A DNA stretch of 41,659 nt. Source: a virus. Lineage: Duplodnaviria; Heunggongvirae; Uroviricota; Caudoviricetes. The notes beneath the pieces were generated by a model that was given only the letters and a program-made list of their open reading frames with translations, searched no databases and was not told where the DNA came from. The DNA lies in IMG/VR virus record IMGVR_UViG_3300013307_000018, positions 144,312-185,970 of that record. One strand, written 5' to 3'. Positions 8,082 through 26,485 of this stretch are shown here, in pieces (position 1 is the first letter of the stretch; every line of letters starts with the position of its first letter). A program made the position numbers and the translations under genes.

Positions 8082-9212
8082 TTATGGACGATAACTGCCG
8101 ATGTCCAGTTTGATTTGACCCACTTTCTCATTCGACCATGCACCGCCATCCGGTGCTTTCATGGCCGCATAAGTTTTGCGAGTAGGGGCACCAACCAGAC
8201 CCGGTATTGTCCGGTCCAGGGGCAGTGACGCCGTACCCTGTTTGAGTTGCTGCTGAGTCCCTGCAGCAGCGGCTTGCAGTTTGTGGCTGAGGGTGGCGAC
8301 CTGTACTGCCACAATCGGCTGGGTTTCCGTTGGTAGCGCAGCAGACAACGTAGCAATCTCACCGTTCGGGGAAGTCTGTACGTTGTAATACCGGTTGTCC
8401 CAGTTGGACTGTTGACCAGACGCCGGAACTACCCCCAAATCAGTGTTGTTGGCATTGAACTGATCCAACACACTCAAGGTACCCGGTGGCGTAAAGCGTC
8501 CGGCATTGGCAATGGACTGCCTCGGCAGGGGTTTGACGATAATCGGCCCCAGTCGCCCGCCAATCGGGTTGGGCTCATTGGCTTCTTCCACAATGAAATA
8601 GAAATCAGTGAAACCAGCTTGCGGGCCAGTACCGGAGTAGCTACTGGTTGGACCAACATTAATCAACTTACCAGTATAGCTGGGTGTTAGATAAGCCGCC
8701 CCGGATACCGTGTTTTGCAATACACCGTTGAGGTAGGTTTTGATGGTCAGTGCCACCCAGTCAATCTCAACCTCCATGTACGACACGCCAGGGGTGTAGG
8801 TGACCGCGCTAACAATCAGACCATTGGAACCCAGGCGGATCTGTATTCCCGTACCTGGACTGCCGGCTTGAGGTCCGATGGCGTAGTAGATACGAGCCCC
8901 CAGGTACCACTTGCCGGTTTTAGGGAGGGCGTCAACTTGGGCATTGTTCATCTGCCAACGCATGTAAGAACTGGCCCCGGAGGTACAGAGAAACTTCCTG
9001 ACCTTACCGTTACTGAGCGTGACTTCGTTTACAAGCCAGGTGGAACTGTACGACGACAACATAGAGCCGAATGTCGTGGTGTCATTACCCGGAAGACCGG
9101 CCAGACCCGACGCCAGTGAACTGGCTGCTGCAAACAGAGCACCACCAGTGCCGGCGTTATAAGTAGGTACGGTTTTAAAATGGTCAAAGCCAATCAGGTT
9201 GACAAGAGCCAT
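8082..9212 (-). CDS. Putative lectin-like (beta-sandwich) receptor-binding protein, paralog 1
   Basis: Shares IGFD, KTGKWY.G, Y.E.EIDWVA.T.K.Y..GVL and GRLGPI motifs with 10414-11565. The Y.E.EID...Y.NG pattern is typical of ConA/LamG-like folds. Confidence 0.6.
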   Translation of the reverse strand: MALVNLIGFDHFKTVPTYNAGTGGALFAAASSLASGLAGLPGNDTTTFGSMLSSYSSTWLVNEVTLSNGKVRKFLCTSGASSYMRWQMNNAQVDALPKTGKWYLGARIYYAIGPQAGSPGTGIQIRLGSNGLIVSAVTYTPGVSYMEVEIDWVALTIKTYLNGVLQNTVSGAAYLTPSYTGKLINVGPTSSYSGTGPQAGFTDFYFIVEEANEPNPIGGRLGPIIVKPLPRQSIANAGRFTPPGTLSVLDQFNANNTDLGVVPASGQQSNWDNRYYNVQTSPNGEIATLSAALPTETQPIVAVQVATLSHKLQAAAAGTQQQLKQGTASLPLDRTIPGLVGAPTRKTYAAMKAPDGGAWSNEKVGQIKLDIGSYRP

Positions 9213-9228
9213 GTGAAATATCCTTTAA

Positions 9229-10404
9229 TTAAGTATCGCTGACCGCGTATTGCGCGAACGCAGAACGCACAGAAGTGCCGTAGTACTGTTGTACCAATGC
9301 GCGCCCGATAACATTCGACACGCTGGCTGCCGTGAGTTCTTTGGTGGCGTATTGAATATTGAGGCTGCGCAGTGAGGTAGGGTAGTACTGTTGTACAAGC
9401 GTGCGACCAAACACCCCGGAGACACTGGCCACTGAGATATCTTTGGTGGCCATTTGCGCAAACAAACTACGCAGGCTAACAAAGTCCGTTCCAGATTTCC
9501 ACAGTACGTGGGTTTGTGTGGTCCCTGTGAGGTTCAGTGACGTCTCTTTCACCGTAATCGGAACAGTAACGTCCTGACCGGTTGACCCGTAATCCACCAC
9601 GTCATCCACAATTTGTTCTGGCAGAACTTTATCCAGAACTTGTGGGAAGAACGCCTGGATGTAACTGAGTGTTGTGCCTTTGTACGGCGCGGTGCTGTAG
9701 ATATACAGGTCCGGGAACAAATCCACAATACTGTCACGGTTGAAATACAGATCCAACGTACCGGTGTATCCGTATTCCGGTTTGCCGGTAAAGGTCACCA
9801 CCGAGTTACCGAACGGTGAATTACTGTTACGTAACGCTCCCCAACTCACGGATTGCTTTTCCACAAACCGGCGGTTGATGGCGTTCGCCAACCCAATCAA
9901 ATCCCCGATACCGGCTAAGACACCGGTTCGTACCAATGCCTGGTTCATCCAGACCGAGGCGAGTTCAATCGGTTTACGAGCATGGAGGGTAATGACTTTC
10001 GAGCCCGTGCAGAGATTACTGCCGGGTTTCGCCGTCAGGGTGACAGTAATATCCCCGTTGGTGAAATCCAGTGGCTGGTTCTCCACGTCGTTCTCGGTTA
10101 ACACCACCCCCGTGATTTGCCCGATGCGCAACAATGCTTCATGCAACGTCGGCGCTTTGGGAATACGAATGATAGCTGGCCAGAATTGAGACAACTCCGC
10201 CAAAGTACGGCGGTGATAGCGGACCTGGGTTTTGCCTCGGTCAGCCAGTTCCCCCGTGGGCGTGCCTTTGATGTTACTGACACCAAACGTCGGGTCAGCC
10301 GTAGGGGTAAACCCACCCATCAACACATCCTGCGGGAGTACACTCGCCCCGTTAATCAGGTTGAGTTGTTTGACCACGGCCGCTTTATAAGGAATAGAAG
10401 GCAT
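9229..10404 (-). CDS. Fibre paralog-family adaptor: two family domains plus C-terminal 34-aa repeats
   Basis: Two copies of the family domain (VRYHRRTLAEL...; LDLYFNRDSIVDLF...), then SLRSLxxQxATK...VSxVxGRxLVQQYY repeats. Confidence 0.7.
   Translation of the reverse strand: MPSIPYKAAVVKQLNLINGASVLPQDVLMGGFTPTADPTFGVSNIKGTPTGELADRGKTQVRYHRRTLAELSQFWPAIIRIPKAPTLHEALLRIGQITGVVLTENDVENQPLDFTNGDITVTLTAKPGSNLCTGSKVITLHARKPIELASVWMNQALVRTGVLAGIGDLIGLANAINRRFVEKQSVSWGALRNSNSPFGNSVVTFTGKPEYGYTGTLDLYFNRDSIVDLFPDLYIYSTAPYKGTTLSYIQAFFPQVLDKVLPEQIVDDVVDYGSTGQDVTVPITVKETSLNLTGTTQTHVLWKSGTDFVSLRSLFAQMATKDISVASVSGVFGRTLVQQYYPTSLRSLNIQYATKELTAASVSNVIGRALVQQYYGTSVRSAFAQYAVSDT
9235..9480 (-). repeat. Tandem ~102-bp (34-aa) imperfect repeat, about 2.4 copies
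   Basis: SLRSLFAQMATKDISVASVSGVFGRTLVQQYYPT / SLRSLNIQYATKELTAASVSNVIGRALVQQYYGT / SVRSAFAQYAVSDT. The DNA string gtagtactgttgtac occurs twice. Confidence 0.85.
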
Positions 10405-10413
10405 GGTGGTTCC

Positions 10414-11565
10414 TTAGGTGTTAGGTTTACTGCCCACAGCAACCGCGTATTTAACGACTTCTTCCGGTGTCCAATTGCCTCCGGCATACGGCGCTGATAA
10501 GCACAGGAAATCACGACGTGGTACTTCGGTAGCCACCACTGAATAGTCCGGTGACGTTTTGGTGCCGTCGGTGAAAGCAAACACCGGCTGGGCGGCAGCA
10601 TCGTACTGCTTGAACGTCAGCAAGTCCATCTGAAACGCTTTGATGCTGTATTCGTTGGCATTCAACACCGGCTTTTTAAAGTGGAACTTGCCTTTTGCCC
10701 CACCGCTATCCAGCGATACACTCACCACAGGGATGGTACTTACGTTCGTCCCGGTATTCACTGCTGTTGCTGCATCCGCAGCACCGACGGCTTTCATGTC
10801 CCCAACCAGGTCTACCGTATCAACTGCCACCGTACGTACCCGAATCGGGCCCAGTCGTCCAGTGGGATTTGGGTCACCTGCTTTATCAATGACGAAATAG
10901 ACATGTGACACACCCAGTGAGTAACTAGAGCTGTTGGTGTATGATGAACTCAGTGGTGGCAACTGCATCCCGGTTGCCCAGTACTGGGCGGTTTGTGGAT
11001 TACCAAAGTACGCGATGGGCGTGGTGGCGAATGTCGTGGAAGCAATCAGTACCCCGTCGACATACCCCTTCACGGTTTTGGCGACCCAATCAATTTCAAA
11101 CTCCAGGTAATACGTCCCACTGCTAAAGTTTGCGGCGGTGTTTGTCGTACTGGCGTTAGCAATCACCGGGATGTTTTTGGTGGCGTCATCCATATCCCCC
11201 ACCATCGCCCATGCCGTATTCGCGCTGACGTTAAGTACCGGGGAGACACACATGCCGAAATACCATTTCCCGGTTTTATCCAGACCGGCAGCACTGAATG
11301 GTGGACCGTACAGATACTGCGCGGGCACCCCGCTGGCCTGTGTGCTTGACCACGGTAAGCAATAAACGGTCTGGTTACCATCTGGGTCGGCACGCGGCCG
11401 AAAATCCATGCGATTGTAAGCAGTGCCCACATACTGCATCAGTGAAATGTCTTTGTCGTTTACGGGTGAGCGCATCAGCCACGGGAACGACGCGGCGAAA
11501 GGCGCATCGGTGGTGAGGCTTTGCAACACCATATTGTCGAAGCCAATCATTGCTACAACGGCCAT
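10414..11565 (-). CDS. Putative lectin-like (beta-sandwich) receptor-binding protein, paralog 2
   Basis: MAVVAMIGFDN, KTGKWYFG, YYLEFEIDWVAKTVKGYVDGVL and GRLGPI. Clear paralog of 8082-9212. Confidence 0.6.
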   Translation of the reverse strand: MAVVAMIGFDNMVLQSLTTDAPFAASFPWLMRSPVNDKDISLMQYVGTAYNRMDFRPRADPDGNQTVYCLPWSSTQASGVPAQYLYGPPFSAAGLDKTGKWYFGMCVSPVLNVSANTAWAMVGDMDDATKNIPVIANASTTNTAANFSSGTYYLEFEIDWVAKTVKGYVDGVLIASTTFATTPIAYFGNPQTAQYWATGMQLPPLSSSYTNSSSYSLGVSHVYFVIDKAGDPNPTGRLGPIRVRTVAVDTVDLVGDMKAVGAADAATAVNTGTNVSTIPVVSVSLDSGGAKGKFHFKKPVLNANEYSIKAFQMDLLTFKQYDAAAQPVFAFTDGTKTSPDYSVVATEVPRRDFLCLSAPYAGGNWTPEEVVKYAVAVGSKPNT

Positions 11566-11592
11566 ATATCAGACCTCTTATTCAATATGAAC

Positions 11593-11628: not shown

Positions 11629-12525
11629 TTATTTTGTCGGGGGTTCTAACCCAGGCAGTTGCGTAACCGATACCAGGTCTTCGGTGGCCATCTTCGTGAT
11701 TTTATCAACATGCAAATAAATCGGCGAATACTGGTTGCCATAAACCGCAGGGGGTGATAGCAGCGCCACCCGACGATAACTCGGGTTGCTGTCCTGCAGG
11801 ACATCCGGCGTGGTAAAGGATAACGTAAAGCCCGACAGGTCATACGGGTCACTGCCCGGCACCAACGTGGACCCCAACGTCAATGGCATTGCGAGCTTGG
11901 CTTTTAAGGCCGCTACAATCGCCACAGCGGTACTGGAGGCCAACGAGAACCCAACGGTAGTGTCATGGGCTTGCAGCGTCGTGAGGATGTCACTGAAGTC
12001 CATCTGGAACGCTTTGAGCATCACATCCGGTAATGACACCGCCGTCAAATCACGTTGTGGGTAATACTCGGTGATTTGTTTGATGCCCCGCGTCCAGACA
12101 CAGTTAATGGTGCCCTCGTAGACAAACGACTTGTCAGTACCCACCGCAATGGTGATGTTACCTGAAGTCGCACTCGCCCCAATTGCAAAGCTCACCATCT
12201 CCGAGGCATCGAGGGTTAACCCATAACGCTCATTGATAGGAACAATCAAATCCAGGGATGTCGTGGCCACAAACTTCTGAATCAGGCACGTGGTATTACT
12301 GAACAACGTTGCGATATGGATACGACGGTAGGTAAACGCCCGCACCCCGGTAAACCCCGCACCCCGAATCCCACGCAACACCACTTTAACCATACTGTTC
12401 CCGATAGACACCGGCAACCCCACAAACTCGACGTTCACTCCCAGTACCGCCCCGGCTAACCCGGGGTTCTCCTGGATGAGTAAGTCCATCACCATTTGTT
12501 TCTGTGGTTTATTAAACAAGGCCAT
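11629..12525 (-). CDS. Virion fibre paralog-family protein with an extra C-terminal docking-like motif
   Basis: Family motifs FTYRRIHIATLF, INERYGLTL and PIYLH. Extra tail ATEDLVSVTQLPGLEPP. Confidence 0.75.
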   Translation of the reverse strand: MALFNKPQKQMVMDLLIQENPGLAGAVLGVNVEFVGLPVSIGNSMVKVVLRGIRGAGFTGVRAFTYRRIHIATLFSNTTCLIQKFVATTSLDLIVPINERYGLTLDASEMVSFAIGASATSGNITIAVGTDKSFVYEGTINCVWTRGIKQITEYYPQRDLTAVSLPDVMLKAFQMDFSDILTTLQAHDTTVGFSLASSTAVAIVAALKAKLAMPLTLGSTLVPGSDPYDLSGFTLSFTTPDVLQDSNPSYRRVALLSPPAVYGNQYSPIYLHVDKITKMATEDLVSVTQLPGLEPPTK

Positions 12526-12537: not shown

Positions 12538-13356
12538 TTAATTCATGTAGTGGTAATAGGCAACACCCACCACATTGCTGTTGTCGATACCGGTTTGCAC
12601 CACCACGCGGTCAAACGCTTTGTTGGCGTTACTCACCGCTGAGGTTGGTTGGTCTACCACGTAGTTACTGTTGAGTGGGGCGTCCCACTGCGGTAACCCA
12701 AACGTCGTGGTCATCACGTGTGACAAATCCGCAAAGCTCGGCATCCCCACCCCGGTGACAGACAGGAAGTTTTTAAACTCCGTGAAGTCCAACCCGATAG
12801 TGAGCATCTGGGCCGATTTGCGTTTGGTGTCCGTGACCGGGTGCTGGTAGGCATTCAGGTTGCGGTTGACCACAAACAAATCAAGCTTCGGTAAACCACG
12901 GTAGTAATACAGCGAGATGGAACTGGTTGTCAGCAACGGAGAATTTGCGTTCCCGCGAATGCTGGTTGACGCCGAGTAGTTCGCAGAGTTTACCCCACCA
13001 AACGCCGGGTTCGTCACATCCGCCTGTGTCAGCTTCAGACCATACCGGGTGTTGAACGCATCCAGCGTGTCAAAGAACTGTGTGGCACTGAAAGAATCTA
13101 CCCTGGCCTGAACCCCACTGAACAGCGTCGACAGACTCAGTCGGTTGTAATACACCGTTTTGTTACCGGTATAACCGGCACCCGCTAAGCCACGAATACG
13201 GGCTGAGGTGTTGTACTGCACCCCATCGATGGTGATGTTTACTGCCGTGATGGCTTCAATCGCGGTGTTGGTTTCTGAATACGGTATCTCGGACGGGTTC
13301 GCCTGGTTAATGAGGTCGAACACCATCTGCTTACCAGTTTTGGTATATAAAGGCAT
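12538..13356 (-). CDS. Virion fibre paralog-family protein
   Basis: YYNRLSLSTLF, FNTRYGLKL, linker LDLFVVNRNLNAYQHP and terminal GVAYYHY. Confidence 0.78.
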   Translation of the reverse strand: MPLYTKTGKQMVFDLINQANPSEIPYSETNTAIEAITAVNITIDGVQYNTSARIRGLAGAGYTGNKTVYYNRLSLSTLFSGVQARVDSFSATQFFDTLDAFNTRYGLKLTQADVTNPAFGGVNSANYSASTSIRGNANSPLLTTSSISLYYYRGLPKLDLFVVNRNLNAYQHPVTDTKRKSAQMLTIGLDFTEFKNFLSVTGVGMPSFADLSHVMTTTFGLPQWDAPLNSNYVVDQPTSAVSNANKAFDRVVVQTGIDNSNVVGVAYYHYMN

Positions 13357-13370: not shown

Positions 13371-14276
13371 TTAAGTAACGGCGTTCGGGTCTTCCGGGTC
13401 ATTGTAGTGCAAATAAAGCAGACCCACGAACAACGTGTTATACACCGTAGTGGGTACTCCGTTGTTGCCTGTACCGTCAGGGAGTTGAATCATCGTTACG
13501 TATTTGTAGTTCTGATTCGTGGCGAACTCTGGTTTGTTCAGTCCAGCATACACCACTTTACCCATGTAGATATTGCGTTGTGCTGCCGAGGTTTGAGACG
13601 CCCAGCCATTGACATCCAGTGCAGTCATGGCTGCCGCCAGTTTCGCCGCTGAGGTATCAGCAGCGGTACCGTTTAATACGGTGTCTTTTGGCAAGCTGTC
13701 TAACAGGGTTTTGTACGGGGTGAAATCAAACCCATACAGTGCCAGCGGACCTTGAGACTTCGCCGTTTGACCGGTTGGGTAGTTCAGCCCATCAAGGGTG
13801 GTGTCCGTCAGGGCGAAGTCCACAATCGCATCGCCTTTCACCAACGTTAATGGATACGTGCCCACCCACCCGTATGACGCTGCTTTCGCCCGCACGGTGA
13901 TTTGTGCACCGCCGTTCTCGTCAAGGGTAATCGGGTCGTTTTCCACATCGTCTGTGGTGAGGACCATCCCGTAGAAATAGTTGAAGTAGTTAAGCAGGTC
14001 ATGTACCTGGGTAACTTTCGCTACCTTCAGGGTACTGCCTACCAGGGTTGCCAAATCTTTCAGGTCCAGACGGGTGTAGTTGACCACCACGGTACCGGAC
14101 CAGGTACTGCCATTTCCCGTCAGGCGGACAGACGAGTTCTTTCCAGACGCCGCAAGAACATCCGCTGAGGCTACAGACACTGCACCGAAGTTCACGTCCG
14201 TCAGCTTGAGGGCTGTGGCGTTGGCAGTGTTCGTGGCATCAATGATGCTCTGCTTGGGATCGACATAAAGGCTCAT
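13371..14276 (-). CDS. Virion fibre paralog-family protein
   Basis: NYTRLDL, SYGWVG, linker VDFALTDTTLDGLNYP, KSQGPL and terminal GLLYLHYN. Confidence 0.78.
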   Translation of the reverse strand: MSLYVDPKQSIIDATNTANATALKLTDVNFGAVSVASADVLAASGKNSSVRLTGNGSTWSGTVVVNYTRLDLKDLATLVGSTLKVAKVTQVHDLLNYFNYFYGMVLTTDDVENDPITLDENGGAQITVRAKAASYGWVGTYPLTLVKGDAIVDFALTDTTLDGLNYPTGQTAKSQGPLALYGFDFTPYKTLLDSLPKDTVLNGTAADTSAAKLAAAMTALDVNGWASQTSAAQRNIYMGKVVYAGLNKPEFATNQNYKYVTMIQLPDGTGNNGVPTTVYNTLFVGLLYLHYNDPEDPNAVT

Positions 14277-14285: not shown

Positions 14286-15110
14286 TCATAACAAATTGTA
14301 GTGTAAATAAATCGGGCCTTTGATGTTGTTGTCCACGATATCGCTGATAACCGTTACCTTTTGGTATCCCGGTCGTGCAGCAGCAACCACACCTTGTGCA
14401 TACGTTGCGATAGACGCTTTCGAATAATCGAAATTCGGGAAGCCGCGTCCGACTAACGTGGCAACTAACGCCGCACTGTTACCTGACGTGAAATTGGGAC
14501 CGGTCCCCATGGGGCCGTCCTTCATCGCCGTGAGCATGTTGAACTCATCGGTGAGGTCAAGACCAAAACTCAACATCGAAGCAGACCGTAATCCAGACTG
14601 AACATCAGCCGAACTCAGCGGGTGCCGGTAAGTATTGAGGTTACGTTCGTAGATGACATCGTTCAGTCGGTATCCGACGTTCACATACCGGGCGTTGGCG
14701 GTACCGACGTACTGCAGTGACTTAGGGTTTGCTACAACCGGAAAGTTGAGCTTGTCATAGAAACTGCGGTTGTTGAGGTCATCTGCGGTAAAGTTTAAGC
14801 CGTAACGGGCGTTGATGTTAGCCAACCCCTGAAGCACAGTACTGATAGCAGGCGCATCAAACGTCATCGTGAAGTTCTTGAACAACAAGGCCAAATCCAG
14901 GCGCTTGTAGCGAAACGTCACGCTGCCGATGTAACCGCGAAACTGAATACCCGACACCACGATTTCCGTGTTGTAGCCTTCAGGTGTGGTCGCAATCACC
15001 ACCGGGGAACCGACCTTACAGTTGTTCTCCGTAAGGGGGTACGGTGCTGCGTTGGCACGGTTCATCTCGTCTAACAACAACGCCTTGGGTGACTTGCTGT
15101 AAATAGCCAT
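14286..15110 (-). CDS. Virion fibre paralog-family protein
   Basis: ATG at 15110 (MAIYSKS) with GGAG SD. RYKRLDLALLF, INARYGL, linker LNDVIYERNLNTYRHP and terminal GPIYLHYN. Confidence 0.78.
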   Translation of the reverse strand: MAIYSKSPKALLLDEMNRANAAPYPLTENNCKVGSPVVIATTPEGYNTEIVVSGIQFRGYIGSVTFRYKRLDLALLFKNFTMTFDAPAISTVLQGLANINARYGLNFTADDLNNRSFYDKLNFPVVANPKSLQYVGTANARYVNVGYRLNDVIYERNLNTYRHPLSSADVQSGLRSASMLSFGLDLTDEFNMLTAMKDGPMGTGPNFTSGNSAALVATLVGRGFPNFDYSKASIATYAQGVVAAARPGYQKVTVISDIVDNNIKGPIYLHYNLL

Positions 15111-15136
15111 AGTGACTCCAAAAACGTTTATGGGAA

Positions 15137-15166
15137 AGAGTGGGCCGAGACCCACTCTCTATGCCG
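15137..15166 (-). terminator. Hairpin (terminator or processing site) inside the paralog array
   Basis: Minus strand CGGCATA-G-AGAGTGGG-TCTCGG-CCCACTCT-TT immediately after the 15170 stop. Confidence 0.6.
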
Positions 15167-17816: not shown

Positions 17817-19964
17817 TTATACAAGGCCTGTTACGGGGGTTTTATACACTGAACCCACACTGACGTAATCAGAAAGCTGAGTAACCCCAGCGACACACCC
17901 CTGGGTGGTGTCCGCATTCACCCAGTCCACCGAGGAGTCCGACAGCAGTGCTTTAAAGTCCCCTGCAAAGCTGCCAGTTAACCCCACGGTATTCTGGAAC
18001 ACCGCTGAAATATCCCGCAGACTCGCCCGGGACTGCATCGCCCGGAACACGCTGCCGATGTTGCCCGTGAGCCCGGTCGATGCAAAGGTCGCCCGCATAA
18101 CCGCAAGATTGACCGTGGTGGCGAACAACCCGGCCGGTAACTGGGTGAGTTGACCACAGCGATGGAACAAGTGCGCAACATTGACAAGCTTGGGTGTCTG
18201 ACTGAACAGTTCAGCAGGAACACTGGTGATTAGCGTCCCGGAAAATGCCCCAGCCACTGAGACCAGTTTTGCGAGGGTTGCGAACAACCTACCTGGGATG
18301 GCGGTGATACCAGTATTGGCAAACACCCAATCCAGACTGGAAACATTCACCGGTCCATCGAGGATGGTGTCCGGTAAGGTCGTGATACCCGTACACCCAT
18401 ACCACACACCGTTAGCTGATTGTAAACGCAGCAATGGCGATAACAACCCTGGGGGGATCTCTTTGAGTTTGGTACAGTGACTGAAAATGTAGTCGATGGA
18501 CAGCAAACGCCGTACCGGTGCAAACAGCACCGTGGGGGTGGTGAGTATCCCGGTGTCCGCAAAGGTGTACTGAGCATACTCCAGGTTCGGACAGTTTTGA
18601 AACAGACCCGGTGGCACGCTTTTCACTAACCCACAGCCCTGAAACAACCGGTCAACGTTCACTAAGTCCGCCAGTCCTGTTAACAACCCCGGTGGGATGG
18701 TATCCAGGTTCCGACACTGAGAGAACATGCCTGCAATCGATTTAAGGCGTGTGTTAGCCTGTAGGAAGCCTTGTGACACAACACTGACCCAACCACAGCC
18801 CGCGAACAGATAACTCGCGTCAGTGAGCTTGGGGAGCGTTACAAGCAGGGTTGCTGGGATAGCGTGCGTCACCGCCTGCGTGTTAGCAAAACACCGGTGC
18901 AGGGTCTCCAATGCCGTGGTGGTACGGAACACCCCCACTGGAATTTGCGTCAATGCCGTGCAGTGCTCAAAGGCCATATCCAGACGACGCAACCGACTGC
19001 ATGATTCAAACAGGTTTTCAGGTAACCGGGTGATGGCCGTGTTACGAAACACCGCAGTGGCGGTTTGTAATTGTGAACACGGTGAAAACAACCGGTCAGG
19101 CAAAGTAGTCAACCCCACACACCCATCAAACATGTAATCCGCTGAGACCAACCCTGGACACAGAGCAAAGCAGTCAGGGTCGATAACCGTCAGGGTTTTA
19201 ATCCCACTGAAATACCCGGTACCGTCCACACTGCCCCGGTACTGGGTCAGTCGGGTGATGGGGATATACCGTCCGGCATTGTCCACAACCCGCACGATGC
19301 CGCCTCGTACCCGAATAGCCCGGGCACCGACCGCTAACGATTGGGGAAAGCGGTGAGCCAGTTGTTTGGTGCGTTTGTTCAGTGTGGCGGTCAGAGTAAC
19401 CCAGGCATCGCCGTCTACCGAACCTTCCAGTGTCACCGGCGTATCGGTGTACGCCACCACGGGGGTGAGGTCATCAGCACTGACAGCAAACCCGTACGCC
19501 ATGCCATCTTTGACCTGCAACCCTGCATCGTGAGTATAGCTGACGTTGGCACTGCCGATATACAGCGGCGAGACCGCATCATTAATCTGTACGGTGGCCA
19601 CACCGCTACGGGGTAAGGTTGCCTCGGCATTGAGCAGTTCGCTGTCCAGGACATCTAACCCGTGACGGGTACGCAATATCGCCACCAGGTCTTTCACGGT
19701 AACGATGCTGCGGTCTTCAATGAGTTCCGGGACTTGCCAGTACTGGGCAATATCAATCCGGTCATAGTGGACGGTGGAGCTACCCACATACCGGACGATG
19801 TCACCAGTGTCGAGAGCATACATCGTGGCCTGGGTGTTGCGAGTACCTCGGGGTGTGGCAGTGATGTCATCCAAATCGATGTTATCGGTACTGAGTGGCA
19901 ACGGGAGTGTCGGGTTAGCGGCCCGTGCCAGTGCCAGGACTTTGTTAATACGGTCGGTATTCAT
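17817..19964 (-). CDS. Fibre-family N-terminal domain fused to BspA/TpLRR-type leucine-rich repeats (putative adhesin)
   Basis: ATG at 19964 with GAGG SD. N-terminal family domain (NTQATM..VHYDRIDI..HGLDV..SPLYIG), then many ~24-26-aa repeats FxxCxxLxxIPxxLF. Confidence 0.8.
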   Translation of the reverse strand: MNTDRINKVLALARAANPTLPLPLSTDNIDLDDITATPRGTRNTQATMYALDTGDIVRYVGSSTVHYDRIDIAQYWQVPELIEDRSIVTVKDLVAILRTRHGLDVLDSELLNAEATLPRSGVATVQINDAVSPLYIGSANVSYTHDAGLQVKDGMAYGFAVSADDLTPVVAYTDTPVTLEGSVDGDAWVTLTATLNKRTKQLAHRFPQSLAVGARAIRVRGGIVRVVDNAGRYIPITRLTQYRGSVDGTGYFSGIKTLTVIDPDCFALCPGLVSADYMFDGCVGLTTLPDRLFSPCSQLQTATAVFRNTAITRLPENLFESCSRLRRLDMAFEHCTALTQIPVGVFRTTTALETLHRCFANTQAVTHAIPATLLVTLPKLTDASYLFAGCGWVSVVSQGFLQANTRLKSIAGMFSQCRNLDTIPPGLLTGLADLVNVDRLFQGCGLVKSVPPGLFQNCPNLEYAQYTFADTGILTTPTVLFAPVRRLLSIDYIFSHCTKLKEIPPGLLSPLLRLQSANGVWYGCTGITTLPDTILDGPVNVSSLDWVFANTGITAIPGRLFATLAKLVSVAGAFSGTLITSVPAELFSQTPKLVNVAHLFHRCGQLTQLPAGLFATTVNLAVMRATFASTGLTGNIGSVFRAMQSRASLRDISAVFQNTVGLTGSFAGDFKALLSDSSVDWVNADTTQGCVAGVTQLSDYVSVGSVYKTPVTGLV

Positions 19965-19979
19965 GGACATCCTCTTAAT

Positions 19980-20007
19980 GGCATAAATGGGAGGCACTGC
20001 CTCCCAT
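19980..20007 (-). terminator. Hairpin after tmk
   Basis: ATGGGAGGC-ACT-GCCTCCCAT, followed on the minus strand by TTATGCC. Confidence 0.6.
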
Positions 20008-20705: not shown

Positions 20706-21321
20706 ACTCACCTCGGACTTTCAGCGCTTTAGACATCCCGATGGCAATGGAATCCGAGCTGTGCTCATCCAAATCCTGCGGGTCTACATGCCATATGAGT
20801 CCGGGGTAATTTACTACACATTGTTTCACACCTTCTTTGTCCCCGCCTTTACCGCCTTTGTGTCCCACCGCCTTTTTGGCTTCCGATGGCCCAATGAGTT
20901 CCAGTACCATAAATCGATTGTAATCGAAGATGGCCCCTTTAATCATTTCCAGACCCACGGTTAACGAGGCAAAGGCATTGGCAAATTTCTTTTTCAAGAA
21001 AGCGGATTCAGCAATGATGGAATGCGGTTGAAACTCATGCATCATGCGCGTGAGCATTTGTCGGTGACAAAACATGCGAGAGAACATTGACCCATGCAGG
21101 TCTTCGTACCCGTTTGGTAAATAGCGCAGTTGACGACTGGCGTGGTGCGTGCTGGAGTACTCGATGGTGATGTCTCCGTTACGCAAATCAACCGTTAATA
21201 AGGATAACCCCAGAGTATCACTCCCGGGGTCAATGCTCATAATCCGGTATTGTGACCCGTAGTCACTAGATGCCAGTTGTGCGAACTGCTGCAAAGGAGG
21301 AACTTGCGGTTGCACTGACAT
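20695..21321 (-). CDS. ruvC: RuvC-like Holliday junction resolvase
   Basis: IMSIDPGSDTLG, IIAESAF, PSEAKKAVGHKG..DKE.V and DEHSSDSIAIG supply the RuvC catalytic D/E/D/D residues. ATG at 21321 with GGAGG SD. Confidence 0.85.
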   Translation of the reverse strand: MSVQPQVPPLQQFAQLASSDYGSQYRIMSIDPGSDTLGLSLLTVDLRNGDITIEYSSTHHASRQLRYLPNGYEDLHGSMFSRMFCHRQMLTRMMHEFQPHSIIAESAFLKKKFANAFASLTVGLEMIKGAIFDYNRFMVLELIGPSEAKKAVGHKGGKGGDKEGVKQCVVNYPGLIWHVDPQDLDEHSSDSIAIGMSKALKVRGEYVV

Positions 21322-22162
21322 TACCCTCCGCAGCCAATGGTTCGGTGAAACCAATGTCCACAGTAAATTCAAAGCCCTGATTCGCAAACCCGATGGCGTA
21401 GTACGCGGTGATGTGGGTGTAGATTTGCGTCATCAACACTTCGGTGAAAGAAACCTTACCGGCCGGGGTATCAACCTGAACTGGCTTGTCAATCCCGGTG
21501 GTCATCATGATTTCAGAAATCACAGCCTCGTTCTCATCACCATAGAGAATCTTCGCCACCTTCATCAGTTCAGCCGCATCGAACTGCGTGAACTGAATGT
21601 TAACCGGAGCTGAGGACATCACGAACTCACCGTCGGTGGTGGTGATGCTGACCGGGTCGATAGTCGGTTTGGCGGGATTGAGGTTGGACTCATTCGGTGT
21701 CAGGGCGGTGACCGTACTGGTACCGTCGGCAATCACCACGTGCTGCATGGTGACTTTGGAGTCGGTTAAATCCAAACGCTTGAGGTAATAGGCGTAATAC
21801 GTTTTTCCGTCATGCACTTCAGTACGACGCAGACCGTAGTTTTTACGGAGAGTGGCACTGAGGTCATCGGAAGGCAGGCGCAACACAAATGGAATTTGGT
21901 TGAAAGCTGCGAAGTCGGTTGGGCGGTGTTGTACAGGCGTCACATACGGACGACCATTACTGCCGGAAGTAAAGTTGTGACCGTTATCCCCGATAGCCCA
22001 ATATTTCATGGTCGGAGTCACCGTCGCATCATCACCTGTTACACCCGACTGAATACCCAATTTTTCATTCAGGGTTGTGTAAGGCACAAGTTCGTGCTTC
22101 AACCCCAAAAGCTTTGCCGTGAGTAAGGCAGATGCCAACACGGTACGTTGAATCGATTTCAT
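21266..22162 (-). CDS. Virion structural (baseplate-type) protein
   Basis: 298-aa ORF with TLNEKLGI, KYWAIG..GH, PFVLR..DDL and YYAYYLKRL motifs recalled from conserved phiKZ-like structural proteins. Confidence 0.65.
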   Translation of the reverse strand: MKSIQRTVLASALLTAKLLGLKHELVPYTTLNEKLGIQSGVTGDDATVTPTMKYWAIGDNGHNFTSGSNGRPYVTPVQHRPTDFAAFNQIPFVLRLPSDDLSATLRKNYGLRRTEVHDGKTYYAYYLKRLDLTDSKVTMQHVVIADGTSTVTALTPNESNLNPAKPTIDPVSITTTDGEFVMSSAPVNIQFTQFDAAELMKVAKILYGDENEAVISEIMMTTGIDKPVQVDTPAGKVSFTEVLMTQIYTHITAYYAIGFANQGFEFTVDIGFTEPLAAEGNVSATASSSFAAVRTTGI

Positions 22163-22305: not shown

Positions 22306-22773
22306 CTATTTAACGATGTTAAATGTTGCAGAACCTGTTAACAGTAAGTTCTTCGAGGATGCGGCAAGCATTACGGTACGCATGGGCAACAACCCGAGTA
22401 ACCCGGTTGAGGTCAATGAATCCGTAATATCGGCTGCGACCAACTGGGTTTTTAACCACTGGTTGATACGCGGCAACAACGCACCTGTTGAACCCGGAAC
22501 CGTACTCAGTTCCGCGCCCCAGGCCACTTTACCGTCTGGCATACGCATCTTGAGGAACTCTGTTACAGTGCGGCGGTTGTAATAGATGTTGATGGTTCCT
22601 AAAACCGTGGGGTTTATCGGAGTCAACGTCACCACCGTATTTTTTCCATTGAGTGTGGTCGTGCTTGGATTCCCAAAAGTGTAAAAATCTCGATAGTTTG
22701 AGAATTTTGGATTCTTCGCTATGATGAGGTCTTTTACCACATTTAGCGGAGTTTGATTCCAGTTCTGTGCCAC
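22306..22773 (-). CDS. Single-domain fibre paralog-family protein
   Basis: GTG start with GGAGG SD. KNTVVTL..INIYYNRR..LLPRINQ..NLLLTGSATF. Ends without the linker motif or second domain. Confidence 0.7.
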   Translation of the reverse strand: MAQNWNQTPLNVVKDLIIAKNPKFSNYRDFYTFGNPSTTTLNGKNTVVTLTPINPTVLGTINIYYNRRTVTEFLKMRMPDGKVAWGAELSTVPGSTGALLPRINQWLKTQLVAADITDSLTSTGLLGLLPMRTVMLAASSKNLLLTGSATFNIVK

Positions 22774-22823: not shown

Positions 22824-22863
22824 CAGCATAAAGGGAAGCTTTCGCCTCCCTGGGGGTTATGCC
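22824..22863 (-). terminator. Hairpin with GCATAA/TTATGC flanks
   Basis: Minus strand GGCATAA..GGGAGGC-GAAA-GCTTCCC-TTTATGCTG. Confidence 0.6.
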
Positions 22864-23294
22864 TTGGTAAAGCGCAGGGTAAAAGAGCCGGTGATATACA
22901 GTGATGCGGGGTTCGCTGTCATCACCACATTGGCGTTGACGGCGTTCGGTGGCAGGGTCGCACTCAACACATCGGTCGGGGTGAGTGTGGTGCCGTACAT
23001 TGCATTGAGGATAGGAATCAAATCCCGGGTGGTCTGGGCATCGGGGTTGCGAATCACCACCGGGATAGCATAGAACAACCGGTCTAAACGAATGCGGCGC
23101 CAGCCAATCAGAATCGAATCCGTGAACCCGCTGTCCGGTAACGGACGCAGGGTCGCCTGGGTGTTAATCGTATCTTTGTCTGCCCCCAATACTTTCACCG
23201 CTTCCAGCACCACGTTCTCAACACTCAACGGTTTCTCAAGGGTGGTGGCATTCAACTGGGTGAAGCGGGCCAGAATGGTATCCAGGTTACTCAT
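22857..23294 (-). CDS. Single-domain fibre paralog-family protein
   Basis: NTQATL..WRRIRLDRLF..LNAMYGTTL..SLYITGSFTL. ATGA overlap with the upstream gene. Confidence 0.72.
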   Translation of the reverse strand: MSNLDTILARFTQLNATTLEKPLSVENVVLEAVKVLGADKDTINTQATLRPLPDSGFTDSILIGWRRIRLDRLFYAIPVVIRNPDAQTTRDLIPILNAMYGTTLTPTDVLSATLPPNAVNANVVMTANPASLYITGSFTLRFTKA

Positions 23295-24202
23295 GACAAC
23301 CCTACCTTACCAATGTCTTTGTTTACGAGAGACGCATCCAAATCCAGCGACGGGTCAGAGAAATGCAGCACGAGATAGCCGAACACGTCGGTACACAACA
23401 CCGCATCCAACACCACCACCACGATACGGTCAACGTTCAGTCGGTGGGTGAATTCCGCGAGCGGTCGACCCGCATAGAGAATCTGCAGGTTACCGCCAGG
23501 CTCAGCCAGATTGCGCACCGTCGGGGTGGTACTGACTCCCCACTGGTTTGCGGCAGGCAAGACCCCGTTGATAACACTCACCAGTGCTTGCGTGGTGGTA
23601 GGGTCAGTGACCCCGGCCTTGACCCCTTTTAACATCGGCCAATACGTATCAAAGTCATACGGTCGTAAATAGAGCGGACCTTGTGCTTTGGCGGACTGGG
23701 CTGTGGGGTAGTCAAAGACCGGGTCGAGCACCGTTTGCAATGCCGTGGTCAACGATTGACTGAATGCTTTAACCTCCACCGACAACGCCCCTACCCAGGC
23801 CAGCGAACTGTCCCGCATCTGAACGGTCACGGTGAGGGGTAAGGTGTTGGGATTGAAATACCGGACCTCGATATCCTCTTCCTCAAACACCGTCCCATAA
23901 AGCGCATTCACGGCTTGCATCACCGCCCAGGTATCGGACTCCCCATCCCAGGCAATCTCCACATTACATCGCGCAAAGACTTGAGCAATGTCCAGTCGTC
24001 GGTAACGTACCGTGACTTTGCCTGATACGCCTTCTTCATCGACGCCCACCACGTCCAGGGCCGTGTTACGTACGTCATTGGTTTTGCTGTCGGGTCTGAG
24101 GTTCGTCAGCACCACGTCATTGGGATTAAAGAACGTACCATTATCCCGGTTGATGAGGTTGTACACCAATGTCCGGGACGGGTAGATATACGGATGAGTC
24201 AT
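23291..24202 (-). CDS. Virion fibre paralog-family protein
   Basis: RYRRLDIAQVF, VNALYG, SLAWVG, linker LTTALQTVLDPVFDYP, KAQGPL and GYLVLHF. Extra tail LDASLVNKDIGKVGL. Confidence 0.78.
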   Translation of the reverse strand: MTHPYIYPSRTLVYNLINRDNGTFFNPNDVVLTNLRPDSKTNDVRNTALDVVGVDEEGVSGKVTVRYRRLDIAQVFARCNVEIAWDGESDTWAVMQAVNALYGTVFEEEDIEVRYFNPNTLPLTVTVQMRDSSLAWVGALSVEVKAFSQSLTTALQTVLDPVFDYPTAQSAKAQGPLYLRPYDFDTYWPMLKGVKAGVTDPTTTQALVSVINGVLPAANQWGVSTTPTVRNLAEPGGNLQILYAGRPLAEFTHRLNVDRIVVVVLDAVLCTDVFGYLVLHFSDPSLDLDASLVNKDIGKVGLS

Positions 24203-24217
24203 GTACTCAGTCTCCGG

Positions 24218-26485
24218 TTAGGTAGTTAGTTGTTGACTGACCGGTGGGAACACCGTGGGGTAATACAGTCCATTGAGGCCACGTACCACGATGACTTGTG
24301 CCAGCGGAATGCCTGACGGTTCTTGTTCCGGTAACGGGTCGATTTCATAAAACTCCAGCCCGTTCAGGTCGGTGACCGTTAACCGGTCAGCCAGTCCGTG
24401 TGTGCGGAACATCACCCCGGGGAGCGGTTGACGCAAGGCCGAATAGAGATAGCCGTTATGGCGAACCTGCATGTCCGGCACGACGTCCACGGCTTCACGT
24501 CCTTTAATCACAATCCAGGCCGACGTATCGGTCACACCCCCGACCAAATCCACAGCTTGGGATGCTTTTAACCGCATCCGGTCACGCAAGACCTCTGGAC
24601 CCGGGTGAGGAATGTGGTCAGACGCCAGCAGTTTGGTCTGGTCATCCCCCATGCGGATGTACCCATCGTTAATGGCTTTGACTTGCCCACTGTTGATGGT
24701 CTGAATCCACTGGGTTGAGTACGAGGACATCTGCGACATGAACTTAATCATCGCCCCTTGAATCTCAGCCAGGGATTTCACATCCGTTAAGTCCTGTCCG
24801 GTTGCCACCTTCAGGATTTCAGCACACAGTGTTGAGCTGTCTAAATCGTCGAGCTCCACCACGTACCAACCCCGGGCTTTGAAATAGTCTTCAAAGCGGG
24901 AGTGGTCGTTATCCAGCACACAGTTCACCCAGCCGTAGCAGCGTGTTACTGCTGCTTCACATTGTCCCCGTGCCACGTAGTTCTCGTGGGTGGTGTACAT
25001 GTAGTACTGATTAATGGCGGCGGTGTGGATGGCGTTGGTGGTGTTGAGGAAAGCTTCGGTTGAAAGCATCACCCCGACATCGGCATTCGACTCCAGAATC
25101 CACTGCAGTTCCTGGTCACTGACGTAAGCCGGTAAGGTTTGGTCTCGCAGGTCATAGAACGATGGCAGCGGCGTTAACCGAACCCGATTGGCCACCACAT
25201 CCGGAATGGTGTCCATCACCACCCCGTAGGTGCGGTTCACGGTATAGAGCCAGACCACAAACGCTTCCAGTGCCGACATGGACATCAGTGCCCCGGTGTA
25301 GGGGTTGGTGACCTGTATCTTTGCCCGGTAGTAGTTGTGGGTGGCTTTATGTACCCATTCGTTCAACGCAATCTCGGCCGACGGGTACACATCCGATGCA
25401 CTGGAGTCAATGACTGACGACTCCAGGATTTTGGTTGGCAGGATGTTGTTGGCTGAGACCTCCATGCGGTCGGTGATATCCACGGTATCCACATCGATAT
25501 CGTTGAGGTTATCGCGGGCTAACCGCGCTTCCCGACTCAGCATGTTCTGCACGGTATGGGTGGCTTTGCCGCCGGTGAGTTTATCCCGGTCGTTACGGGA
25601 AATGCGCTGCAAGGCAATCGCCGGGTACAGTGACTCACCGGTTTCGAACTCGGTGATGTCGTGAATCATTTTGTACCAGGCAACCGGCAACCCACGCTCA
25701 CTCATCACGTTTTCAATCAACGTGGTCTGGTTTGCTACCCGTCCGGCATTCATCTGCAAATACTTGACGTTACGGTACAACCACAGCGCTTGTTTGGTGG
25801 TGAAGAAATTGCGGTACTCGCCGAGGTTGCCGTTGGACTCTAAATATTCCCAGATGTGGTAAGAATGCGCAAACTCCGTTTTGCAATTCCCTAACCGCAG
25901 GGTCATGATAATCCCGGGCAGGTGTGCCAGATACCCACCCACCGTCGCCGGTCGATAGAGGTCGTCCACGACATCAAACGCGGGCGAGGCCCACCGACTG
26001 AACCAGGCATGGGTCCAGTCCTGTAACCGGGGAATCAGATTGACTTCCGTGGGTTCCACCAAATCGGCTTCATAGCCCAGAATAGTATTGTCCGGGGCTT
26101 TGATGGCTCGGGTCAGGTCGACCGGATTCAGAATACCGCGAATCAACAGTTCCTGCGTTGGGTATCGTTTGACTAACTCCTCGTAGTAAACACTACCAAA
26201 GGCATAGGCTTTCCGGGTTGCCCGGTTATCCTGTAGGGCCGCCGTGGTAAAGGAAATCGTTTCCAGACTGTCGAGTGATGTAACGGACATCATAGTGTCC
26301 GTAGAATGATACGCCCCAGATATATTTTTATAGTAGCGCCATGTGGTCGGGTCATCCGACACGGCATACCCTCTTTCCGTGAGATCGTTGTTCATCGCTT
26401 CAGCTGTAGCAACGTTCTTCACTACCAATGTCTTGGCGAGTTTGATGACGTCTGATACGTAAAGCCCATAAAGTGTATTGGACAC
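24218..26485 (-). CDS. Large virion structural protein, baseplate wedge-like (phiKZ gp128-like by position)
   Basis: GTG at 26485 with GGAGG SD; divergent from the portal gene. Motifs WRYYKNISGAYH, LIRGILNP, HSYHIWEYL and QALWLYRN. The C-terminus has two docking-like motifs. Confidence 0.7.
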   Translation of the reverse strand: MSNTLYGLYVSDVIKLAKTLVVKNVATAEAMNNDLTERGYAVSDDPTTWRYYKNISGAYHSTDTMMSVTSLDSLETISFTTAALQDNRATRKAYAFGSVYYEELVKRYPTQELLIRGILNPVDLTRAIKAPDNTILGYEADLVEPTEVNLIPRLQDWTHAWFSRWASPAFDVVDDLYRPATVGGYLAHLPGIIMTLRLGNCKTEFAHSYHIWEYLESNGNLGEYRNFFTTKQALWLYRNVKYLQMNAGRVANQTTLIENVMSERGLPVAWYKMIHDITEFETGESLYPAIALQRISRNDRDKLTGGKATHTVQNMLSREARLARDNLNDIDVDTVDITDRMEVSANNILPTKILESSVIDSSASDVYPSAEIALNEWVHKATHNYYRAKIQVTNPYTGALMSMSALEAFVVWLYTVNRTYGVVMDTIPDVVANRVRLTPLPSFYDLRDQTLPAYVSDQELQWILESNADVGVMLSTEAFLNTTNAIHTAAINQYYMYTTHENYVARGQCEAAVTRCYGWVNCVLDNDHSRFEDYFKARGWYVVELDDLDSSTLCAEILKVATGQDLTDVKSLAEIQGAMIKFMSQMSSYSTQWIQTINSGQVKAINDGYIRMGDDQTKLLASDHIPHPGPEVLRDRMRLKASQAVDLVGGVTDTSAWIVIKGREAVDVVPDMQVRHNGYLYSALRQPLPGVMFRTHGLADRLTVTDLNGLEFYEIDPLPEQEPSGIPLAQVIVVRGLNGLYYPTVFPPVSQQLTT

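Follow-up and report, generated by a model that had tools for sequence, protein, structure and literature searches.

The DUF7941 genes and their neighbours

The window, by which the whole analysed stretch of 41,659 nucleotides is meant, is part of a 186-kb phage contig. Its minus strand carries an array of genes with a shared N-terminal domain (NTD), together with a spoke gene, a wedge gene and two genes of another kind:

8082..9212, minus strand: protein of no known family, paralog of 10414..11565 (BLASTP between the pair, E = 4e-17)
9229..10404, minus strand: DUF7941 protein with two tandem NTD-like domains (two Pfam stretches; two domains by the NTD HMM) at about 9967-10395 and 9493-9900, and C-terminal 34-residue repeats at 9232-9492
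10414..11565, minus strand: paralog of 8082..9212 (same BLASTP, E = 4e-17)
11629..12525, minus strand: DUF7941 two-domain subunit, linker motif at 12010-12087, second copy C-terminal at about 11632-11706
12538..13356, minus strand: DUF7941 two-domain subunit, linker motif at 12820-12897 (Pfam, 204 bits over the full length)
13371..14276, minus strand: DUF7941 two-domain subunit, linker motif at 13758-13835
14286..15155, minus strand: DUF7941 two-domain subunit, linker motif at 14604-14675
15170..16063, minus strand: DUF7941 two-domain subunit, the member that was folded, linker motif at 15506-15577
16082..16912, minus strand: DUF7941 two-domain subunit, linker motif at 16394-16471
16914..17771, minus strand: DUF7941 two-domain subunit, linker motif at 17247-17324
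17817..19997, minus strand: DUF7941 NTD with BspA-type LRR (PF25613, 51 bits; PF13306 LRR_5; phrog_9915)
21266..22162, minus strand: homolog of phiKZ gp139 and Goslar gp32, DUF7208 (Pfam, E = 8.6e-97)
22306..22773, minus strand: DUF7941, NTD only; the ORF stops where the NTD ends (Pfam, NTD HMM)
22857..23294, minus strand: DUF7941, NTD only, in the position of phiKZ gp126 (Pfam, NTD HMM, gene order)
23291..24202, minus strand: DUF7941 two-domain protein in the position of phiKZ gp127, linker motif at 23687-23764
24218..26485, minus strand: baseplate wedge protein, linker-like motifs at 24350-24391 and 24254-24307 in its C-terminal tail

Twelve genes (9229, 11629, 12538, 13371, 14286, 15170, 16082, 16914, 17817, 22306, 22857, and 23291) had been predicted to be paralogs with a common N-terminal domain. 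All twelve match Pfam family PF25613 (DUF7941) with 32-204 bits, above its gathering score of 27 bits, and the conserved positions are as described: in the alignment one Arg is invariant, and N, G, Y, and G positions are nearly so. The proposed two-domain, single-domain, LRR-fused, and tandem-domain classes are likewise borne out by Pfam and the NTD HMM. The whole contig has 14 DUF7941 matches, two of which (G000:C1:8143-8760 and 8736-9413) are outside the window. The interleaved pair 8082..9212 and 10414..11565 has no Pfam match at E<=1 and is not DUF7941.

Eight of the twelve genes have the layout NTD, linker, C-terminal domain (CTD). The linker motif consists of alternating hydrophobic residues followed by L-[N/D]-G-[L/F], often with Y-P next; it is central or C-terminal in position and is the most conserved portion of these proteins outside the domains. 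It is absent from 22306 and 22857, as well as from the LRR-bearing 17817. The extra C-terminal copy expected in 11629 is retained in the ortholog from a 278-kb relative (G001), and the weaker one in 23291, a short extension at about 23294-23356, is conserved in G001 and Eowyn. The C-terminal 34-residue repeats of 9229 are kept in five orthologs and are distinct from the linker motif; the branch points of the original prediction are hypothetical. The true start of 14286..15155 is probably the ATG near 15110, since the Pfam match begins at residue 16.

In the AF2 monomer model of 15170, blocks 1-15 and 19-30 (NTD and CTD) have a pLDDT of about 90, and linker residues 160-180 of about 53. The model of 9229 has two folded globular domains, with a pLDDT below 35 for residues 305-391. 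The motif is unstructured in both models. The sole PDB fold match of the 15170 model at E<=0.001 in Foldseek, with this one member as the query, is 9xqd_0, a chain of the phiKZ outer baseplate that represents the gp127 NTD (E = 5e-6, target TM 0.68). The kinship originally suggested, with phiKZ gp131-135, does not stand: the counterparts are gp126, gp127, and gp143, and the genes of gp131-135 type in the window are 3021-4304 and 4320-6068.

The DUF7941 genes adjoin wedge and spoke genes in synteny with phiKZ and Goslar (PHROG and Pfam context). The product of 21266..22162 is 39% identical to phiKZ gp139 (E = 8e-64), and proteins of the gp139/gp32 type are described in the Goslar paper as baseplate spokes resembling T4 gp8 (PMC13742148). 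Overall, the twelve genes encode virion proteins of the DUF7941 family, from which the phage, a phiKZ-like member of the Chimalliviridae, likely builds flexible fibres by head-to-tail assembly. Eight divergent two-domain subunits in tandem with an LRR tip suggest a modular, fast-evolving host-recognition kit, which is relevant to host range where jumbo phages are under consideration as therapy.

Proposed head-to-tail chaining and the wedge tail

For coliphage Goslar, a fibre model with the linker acting in trans appeared in 2026 (PMC13742148), and the chaining considered here is of this known kind. In AF3 head-to-tail dimers the linker extends a beta-sheet of the next subunit's NTD, and purified gp22 is reported to form filaments in negative-stain EM. 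In Goslar, the family also includes fusions to LRR, carbohydrate-binding, or glycoside hydrolase domains. By copy number, DUF7941 proteins rank near the top in the Goslar virion, with more than 2,500 copies (gp23 about 2,140, gp22 about 580). The trans binding put forward in the original prediction matches this model, and the AF2 architecture of 15170 agrees with it.

By analogy with Goslar, the short linker peptide of one subunit would dock on the NTD of the next; therefore, two-domain members would extend the chain. Domain-only members may cap it, and the two NTD-only proteins (22306..22773 and 22857..23294) are the predicted caps. The LRR-fused member would form the host-binding tip, so that 17817..19997, which lacks the linker motif, is predicted to be an adhesin tip.

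Poor resolution of the peripheral baseplate in the cryo-EM maps has kept the attachment site of DUF7941 proteins from being settled. One candidate is the wedge protein (24218..26485), which matches phrog_3222 (E = 7e-199) and aligns with phiKZ gp128 across 618 residues at 36% identity (E = 1e-119), the tail falling outside the alignment. Its gene is divergent from the portal gene, as in relatives, and the Goslar homolog gp35 is equated with T4 gp7 (PMC13742148). The occurrence of the linker motif on this protein had been anticipated: its tail scores 14.8 bits with the motif HMM, as high as none of 300 shuffles. The real score was likewise reached by none of 300 shuffles in Eowyn, L003, and L004, and by one of 300 in Goslar. 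The window protein has two copies and relatives have from two to about 11, the latter in tandem in Eowyn; copies are also present in MJ359, 2050HW, SPLA10, and SNUABM54. In phiKZ the wedge protein is without the tail motif and DUF7941 proteins are present. Wedge tails and linkers of the same phage show no specific match, 2,213 of 5,040 pairings scoring equally well, and for Goslar, shuffled tails come as close to the phage's linkers as the real wedge tail does (z = -0.2). Wedge tails may root DUF7941 fibres at the baseplate.

The capsid stop codon and the possible anchoring of fibres

A second candidate site lies behind the stop codon of the major capsid protein gene:

34743..36950, minus strand: major capsid protein gene (phrog_3231, E = 5.6e-149); stop TGA at 34743-34745, next base C
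34686..34742, minus strand: post-stop peptide, 19 open codons in the capsid frame, ending at TAG 34683-34685
34606..34639, no strand assigned: terminator-like hairpin with a 14-bp stem

Since the hairpin lies downstream of them, the post-stop codons are on the capsid mRNA. The claim that the linker motif recurs after this stop is upheld by a whole-genome search: an HMM of 13 motif instances, run against 7,702 six-frame fragments of the genome, gives the post-stop peptide as its top non-training hit (12.9 bits, E = 0.031), and the runner-up has 8.7 bits (E = 0.77). A BLAST comparison of the peptide with DUF7941 tails in its own genome alone is not significant (E = 4.9, about the tenth hit). G001 has almost the same peptide, with two synonymous changes and one replacement. 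In the genome at large, TGA ends 47 of 158 long ORFs, and at least 19 open post-stop codons follow 60 of the 158. The 186-kb contig yielded no suppressor tRNA.

Among 44 chimallivirus capsid gene ends, 34 show TGA with 16-55 open in-frame codons behind it, and 10, that of Eowyn among them, have TAA with at most 13 open codons and no extension. The association is perfect over the 44 ends. These do not count as independent cases: clustering the first 40 gives 16 groups at 90% identity and seven at 60%, and both states are found inside single 60%-identity clusters. Three of the ten TAA genes (L013, L014, and L100) carry the motif fused ahead of the TAA. The extension is dispensable, since ten of the capsid genes are without it. 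TGA with an in-frame motif-like peptide is common to phiKZ, Goslar, and most chimalliviruses examined. Of 17 phiKZ-like loci, every one has 26-31 open codons in frame 0, and stops occur in frame +1 in all 17 and in frame +2 in 14. The pN/pS of the phiKZ-like extension is 0.65 versus 0.38 for the last 30 capsid codons, a modest constraint.

The post-stop peptides resemble the tails of DUF7941 proteins of the same phage. The best non-self six-frame match of the Goslar peptide is the C-terminal tail of its own DUF7941 protein (E = 0.005; next 1.3), as is that of the phiKZ-like G004 (E = 2e-6; next 1.2). In a matrix of post-stop peptides against tails from six genomes the true pairing scores top, tied by 27 of 20,000 random pairings (about 1 in 720). 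There are three motif flavours, each matching the 'domain plus tail' protein of the same phage, and proteins consisting only of 'domain plus tail' are present in every genome examined.

In phiKZ the capsid C-terminal arm has been modelled to its final residue, at the hexamer centre, and in pentamers it contacts gp244 (PMC11297242), which is placed on the outer capsid surface (PMC13250141). One possible scheme is that occasional read-through of the capsid TGA would put a docking peptide on a few of about 1,600 subunits, at the capsomer centre, and that 'domain plus tail' subunits would start a fibre on it. The starter would be of the type of the abundant Goslar gp23 and of phiKZ gp143, represented here by the two contig members outside the window. 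Both the read-through and the docking of the peptide are inferred. The available portions of the Goslar and phiKZ structure papers hold no mention of capsid-borne fibres.

On balance, the evidence tips towards DUF7941 head-to-tail fibres rooted by the wedge-tail and capsid post-stop peptides, and comparison among relatives lends support to both as putative roots. A wider proposal, to which we give slightly less than even weight, is that in chimalliviruses including phiKZ and Goslar a programmed UGA read-through displays, on a small number of capsomer centres per head, a mimic of the DUF7941 docking peptide. Six peripheral-baseplate sites would then not be the only origin of the 'fibre cloud', a large part of which would arise on the capsid and on the multi-copy motif arrays of the wedge.

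It is rather unlikely that anchoring is confined to the baseplate as published, with DUF7941 proteins polymerising from the peripheral baseplate beside the gp139/gp32 spokes and the wedge-tail and capsid motifs serving another purpose or none. The gp127 NTD is indeed modelled at the far end of the gp139 band in phiKZ, off the wedge (PMC13250141), and the Goslar authors fit a gp126-gp127 dimer at this gp139/gp32-spoke site (PMC13742148); the missing phage-specific co-variation of wedge tails, the phiKZ wedge without a motif, and the weak match of the capsid peptide within the window alone also agree with such anchoring. However, by the Goslar authors' own estimate, six anchoring sites can accommodate more than 2,500 subunits only with fibres about 3 micrometres long (PMC13742148). 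The strict pairing of TGA with an extension and of TAA with none across the 44 gene ends, the fusion of the motif to the capsid protein in three records, and the own-tail matches of the Goslar and G004 peptides also speak against it.

Alternatively, the capsid extension may be translated without docking DUF7941, for example altering the capsomer-centre pore or binding an internal or decoration protein, its likeness to tails being convergent or a relic of recombination. The pN/pS value is compatible with this, as is the central bundle or barrel of the hexamer that the C-terminal arms are reported to form, but the fit of each of the three flavours to the 'domain plus tail' protein of the same phage and the Gly-rich spacer before the TGA in several capsid proteins, which suits a tether, make it quite unlikely. 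Very improbable is a purely interdomain linker in separate monomeric decoration or adhesin proteins that form no chains: it would accommodate the motif being unstructured in both monomer models, but not the gp22 filaments and AF3 contacts of Goslar, the superior conservation of the motif outside the domains, or the 'domain plus tail' only members of each genome examined.

On the favoured reading of fibres rooted at both sites, docking peptides in the wedge tail and past a leaky stop of the capsid gene would offer concrete attachment sites; estimates of fibre number and length would change, and well-studied model phages would provide a further case of translational recoding. The wider proposal, if true, would be a new mode of attaching host-sensing fibres.

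Comparison with known systems

The closest system is that of Goslar gp22/gp23 and eight paralogs (PMC13742148, Sci Adv 2026; preprint April 2026), which belong to the same Pfam family and are built alike, from an NTD, a disordered linker, and a CTD. LRR-fused members, 'domain plus tail' only members, and clustering beside wedge and spoke genes are common to both phages; the contig exceeds Goslar in number, with at least 14 members versus 10, and a single tandem array accounts for eight of its members. The available text of the Goslar paper has no mention of the wedge-tail motif or the capsid post-stop peptide, both of which are present in Goslar's own genome, and neither motif was found in print in the portions of the literature at hand.

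The gene order of phiKZ (PDB 9xqd; PMC13250141) is the same: portal, wedge on the opposite strand, gp127-like, and gp126-like. Its capsid gene likewise has TGA followed by an in-frame peptide, which resembles the gp143 tail. In contrast, phiKZ has only about three DUF7941 members (gp126, gp127, and gp143) versus at least 14 in the contig, and in place of L-[N/D]-G-[L/F] both its tail and its extension show a repeated motif of the R-Y-L-E-[D/N]-G type.

The likeness to donor-strand complementation in chaperone-usher pili, also part of the original prediction, holds as an analogy and not as a pilin fold. The logic is the same, as a strand completes the next subunit's sheet and donor-less subunits end the chain, but the donor is N-terminal in pili and central or C-terminal in DUF7941 proteins. 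With the 15170 model Foldseek found no pilin or Ig fold in the PDB at E<=0.001 (a fimbrial chaperone ranks 35th, E = 1.0), and no chaperone or usher family was matched by 20 proteins against Pfam or 30 against PHROGs. The wedge differs from the T4 gp7 type by its tail of tandem linker-like motifs, with from none (phiKZ) to about 11 (Eowyn) copies.

Q-beta A1 and the T7 capsid protein 10B are minor forms of the major capsid protein with a C-terminal extension, which arises from recoding where the coat gene ends, at a UGA in the small RNA phage Q-beta and by a frameshift in the podophage T7. The sequence arrangement of the Q-beta A1 type, a coat UGA with a conserved open in-frame extension, is found in 34 of 44 capsid ends, that of the window included; translation of the extension here is putative. 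To our knowledge, a read-through capsid extension would be the first in a dsDNA phage. Compared with A1 and 10B, the putative extension is short, of 16-55 residues, belongs to a T=27 jumbo dsDNA phage, and would mimic the docking peptide of a separate fibre family.

The phage and its DUF7941 genes

Core genes of phiKZ-like jumbo phages were found by PHROG and Pfam scans in the window, which forms the final 41.7 kb of an IMG/VR viral contig of 185,970 bp that was judged 69% complete. Besides the genes listed below, the same scans gave an RNA polymerase subunit, a DnaB-like helicase, a RuvC-like resolvase, a thymidylate kinase, and tail-fibre genes with a Tfa-like chaperone. Named phages gave no DNA-level match to the 16-kb region in a nucleotide search. 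By protein, Klebsiella phage Eowyn and Serratia phage KpHz_2 are closest, with about 50% amino-acid identity on the wedge protein. The phage is only distantly related to named phages. In G001, a complete IMG/VR relative of 278.5 kb, the wedge protein is 77% identical to that of the window, and the capsid protein shows 93% identity across its final 299 residues and 83% over the whole protein. The order of genes is as in phiKZ, with the portal gene and the wedge gene pointing apart and the genes at 23291, 22857, 22306, and 21266-22162 following the wedge gene.

Genes of the window (single numbers are start coordinates)
34743-36950, minus strand: major capsid protein
26523-29201, divergent from the wedge gene: portal-region virion protein
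24218-26485: wedge protein, 36% identical to phiKZ gp128 (E=1e-119)
23291, minus strand: gp127-like DUF7941 gene
22857, minus strand: gp126-like DUF7941 gene
22306, minus strand: second DUF7941 gene with the N-terminal domain (NTD) only
21266-22162: gp139 homolog, 39% identical to phiKZ gp139 (E=8e-64)
10414-11565 and 8082-9212, minus strand: paralogs of about 380 residues each (BLASTP E=4e-17), interleaved with DUF7941 genes
4320-6068 and 3021-4304, minus strand: tail-fibre-type genes with a common N-terminal domain (phrog_2163, phrog_13857; phiKZ gp131-135 type)
2423-3010, minus strand: Tfa-like fibre assembly chaperone, after the two gp131-135-type genes

Taken as its longest open frame, 24218-26701, the wedge gene reaches about 180 bases into the start of the divergent portal-region gene; its first approximately 72 codons are probably untranslated, since the start lies at about 26485 in relatives and in the representative of the protein cluster. 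The paralogs at 8082 and 10414 have alike N-termini and a common G-R-L-G-P-I stretch and are without a Pfam family; they were considered as gp139 homologs and rejected, the gp139 homolog being 21266-22162.

The twelve genes that the original prediction had grouped as paralogs do form one family, as all of them score above the Pfam cut-off for DUF7941 (PF25613), and the conserved positions that it had listed are present in the alignment. The classes it had drawn are also real: eight members consist of an NTD, a linker, and a C-terminal domain (CTD), 22306 and 22857 terminate with the NTD, 17817 joins an NTD to BspA-type leucine-rich repeats (LRRs), and 9229 has two NTD-like domains. Two further members with an NTD plus a short tail, of the type of Goslar gp23 and phiKZ gp143, lie far upstream in the contig (G000:C1:8143-8760 and 8736-9413). 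Just upstream of these, a 149-codon open frame outside the window (G000:C1:7664-8110, plus strand) has a hydrophobic N-terminal stretch resembling a membrane helix and a C-terminus like the linker motif (3.2 bits); judged from its sequence, it may be a third non-family carrier of the motif.

The same DUF7941 array is found in the same order in G001. There, a 1,564-residue protein (G001:C1:188157-192848) has four matches to the NTD HMM, two strong ones with E of about 1e-17 to 1e-19 and two weak ones at 7e-07 and 4e-04. Since it occupies the place of the 391-residue 9229, the position proposed for an 'adaptor' is highly variable between close relatives. The AF2 model of 9229, built from five sequences only, has a mean pLDDT of 68.7 and unstructured C-terminal repeats, and no docking of these repeats onto the protein's own domains was seen in this monomer model. 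The repeats were rejected as copies of the linker motif and represent a separate conserved repeat.

In the AF2 model of 15170, a member with NTD, linker, and CTD (42 sequences; mean pLDDT 86.8), both domains are confident, and the motif-bearing linker has a pLDDT of about 53. At E<=0.001 the model has a single match in the PDB, a chain of 150 residues from 9xqd, the entry for the phiKZ outer baseplate (E=5e-6), and no pilin-like fold was found among its PDB matches.

The in-frame extension after the capsid stop codon

In the window, the capsid gene ends with TGA followed by C, 19 in-frame open codons, TAG, and a 14-bp hairpin, and the peptide encoded after the stop resembles the linker motif. 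In a six-frame scan of the contig with an HMM of 13 linker or tail instances that lie immediately after an NTD, this peptide was the best non-training match (E=0.031; next 0.77), in agreement with the copy of the motif originally noticed there. With an earlier HMM of eight instances it was the top non-family match at E=1.7 only, and BLAST against its own six-frame translation reached a DUF7941 tail at E=4.9 only. Moreover, TGA terminates 47 of the 158 long ORFs of the contig, and at least 19 open codons follow the stop in 60 of the 158. On this genome alone the case for the peptide would be weak, and the comparison across phages carries the weight.

Capsid ends were compared at 24 IMG/VR loci, 12 metagenome loci, and in the window, G001, phiKZ, Eowyn, and four further named phages (44 in all). 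TGA is followed by 16-55 in-frame open codons in 34 of them and TAA by at most 13 in 10, with zero exceptions to this association in either direction. These ends do not count as independent cases, the first 40 forming 16 clusters at 90% identity and 7 at 60%; nine of the 90% clusters have TGA plus an extension, seven have TAA, and two 60% clusters contain both states. At three loci with TAA (L013, L014, and L100), the capsid protein is longer and has the motif at its end, fused without an intervening stop. Each of 17 phiKZ-like loci keeps frame 0 open for 26-31 codons, with stops in frame +1 in 17 and in frame +2 in 14; pN/pS is 0.65 in the extension versus 0.38 at the end of the capsid gene. 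A Gly-rich stretch lies directly before TGA and the extension in the capsid proteins of SNUABM54 (L121), SPLA10 (L120), and 2050HW (L118), and it would suit a tether. Capsid proteins with Gly-rich low-complexity ends also occur at L096 and L101, with TAA and no extension.

The motif differs in flavour by lineage: the window has L-[N/D]-G-[L/F], phiKZ-like phages have R-Y-L-E-[D/N]-G in repeated form, and Goslar, 2050HW, and SPLA10 have G-F-containing forms. In every lineage, the capsid extension matches the flavour of the 'NTD plus tail' protein of the same phage. When whole genomes were translated in six frames, the best non-self match of the Goslar post-stop peptide was the C-terminal tail of gp23 (E=0.005; next 1.3), and that of the peptide from the phiKZ-like genome G004 was the tail of its gp143 homolog (E=2e-6; next 1.2). 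In a matrix of extensions against tails from six genomes, the true pairing was the best of the 720 possible and was tied by 27 of 20,000 random draws, own tails being the row maximum in four of six rows.

A suppressor tRNA was not found in the contig, where tRNA-Ser is the only tRNA. G001 has a tRNA-Trp(CCA) (L106:9284-9359), as well as tRNA-Asn and a third, unassigned tRNA. When UGA is read by a near-cognate tRNA, this is usually tRNA-Trp.

Motif copies in the wedge-protein tail

The final approximately 140 residues of the wedge protein of the window lie outside the gp128 alignment and contain two linker-like motifs.

Motif copies in the tails of wedge proteins
Window: 2
G001 (L003): 2
L004 and L005 (33%-identical contigs): 3
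Goslar gp35: several looser copies
MJ359, 2050HW, SPLA10, and SNUABM54: 2 or more
Eowyn: about 11 in tandem
phiKZ, L006, and L007: none seen

Against the 13-instance HMM, none of 300 composition-matched shuffles reached the real score for the tails of the window, Eowyn, L003, and L004, and one of 300 did so for Goslar. In the genome-wide scan with the same HMM, a score of only 3.6 bits was obtained for the first wedge motif, and the best 45 matches did not include the second. No phage-specific co-variation between wedge tails and own-phage linkers was seen among seven phages, four of them represented by a 26-28-kb locus only, 2,213 of 5,040 pairings being equal or better. A complex prediction with two copies of the 15170 NTD and the wedge tail (residues 686-755), run without controls, scored 0.01, the mark being 0.32, and counts neither for nor against binding. 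In the phiKZ atlas, five gp139 dimers form a band that begins at the wedge protein gp128 and has the NTD of gp127 at its end, so that gp127 is not seated on the wedge (PMC13250141). Both this placement and the missing co-variation count against rooting by the wedge tail.

Eowyn (L090), with its approximately 11 wedge-tail copies, and MJ359 (L119), with at least four, have a capsid gene that ends in TAA without an extension. There is here a hint of a trade-off between anchoring at the capsid and at the wedge, the two cases being too few for testing.

A possible assembly scheme and the published fibre model

According to the Goslar study, this phage has ten DUF7941 proteins, with gp23 at about 2,140 and gp22 at 580 copies per virion (PMC13742148). 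In AlphaFold 3 head-to-tail dimers, the linker of one protomer extends a beta-sheet of the next protomer's NTD (PMC13742148), and purified gp22 forms filaments (PMC13742148). Some members also carry a fused LRR, carbohydrate-binding, or hydrolase domain, and the authors proposed a 'fibre cloud' with its root at the peripheral baseplate (PMC13742148). By analogy with this model, it is quite likely that in the present phage, too, each linker docks head-to-tail onto the next subunit. Members with the NTD only may cap the chains and the LRR member may form a tip, because they have no donor motif.

Partial read-through of the capsid TGA would give a minor extended capsid protein, and this is fairly probable. 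The capsid C-terminal arm of phiKZ is modelled to its last residue, with six arms bundled round a 9-angstrom pore at hexamer centres and the arm contacting gp244 in pentamers (PMC11297242). gp244 belongs to the outer capsid surface (PMC13250141, introduction), and the Goslar hexon has a six-stranded barrel of arms at its centre (PMC13742148). Therefore, an extension would begin at the capsomer centre, and it may point outward. The chances seem about even that the NTD of a gp23/gp143-type subunit would then bind it. With approximately 1,600 capsid subunits per head in the Goslar text (PMC13742148), even 0.5% read-through would provide several anchor points per head. Wedge tails may likewise anchor fibres as their roots, although the odds lie slightly against this.

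Literature searches on capsid read-through in phiKZ or jumbo phages, and term searches within the Goslar and phiKZ papers, gave nothing on translational read-through. Within the same scope, the motif arrays of the wedge tail were not found in print, nor was the arrangement of capsid TGA plus peptide. The original prediction that the peptide binds a family domain in trans and builds fibres is in substance the published Goslar model (PMC13742148). Its likeness to pilus donor-strand exchange stands as an analogy and fails as membership, as a pilin-like fold was not found. phiKZ gp131-135, which had been cited as a known paralog expansion, belong to a separate family, represented here by 3021-4304 and 4320-6068; the DUF7941 members of phiKZ are gp126, gp127, and gp143 (PMC13742148). 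Both the family of fibre proteins and the way its members link to one another have been published, so the DUF7941 set described here is a further member.
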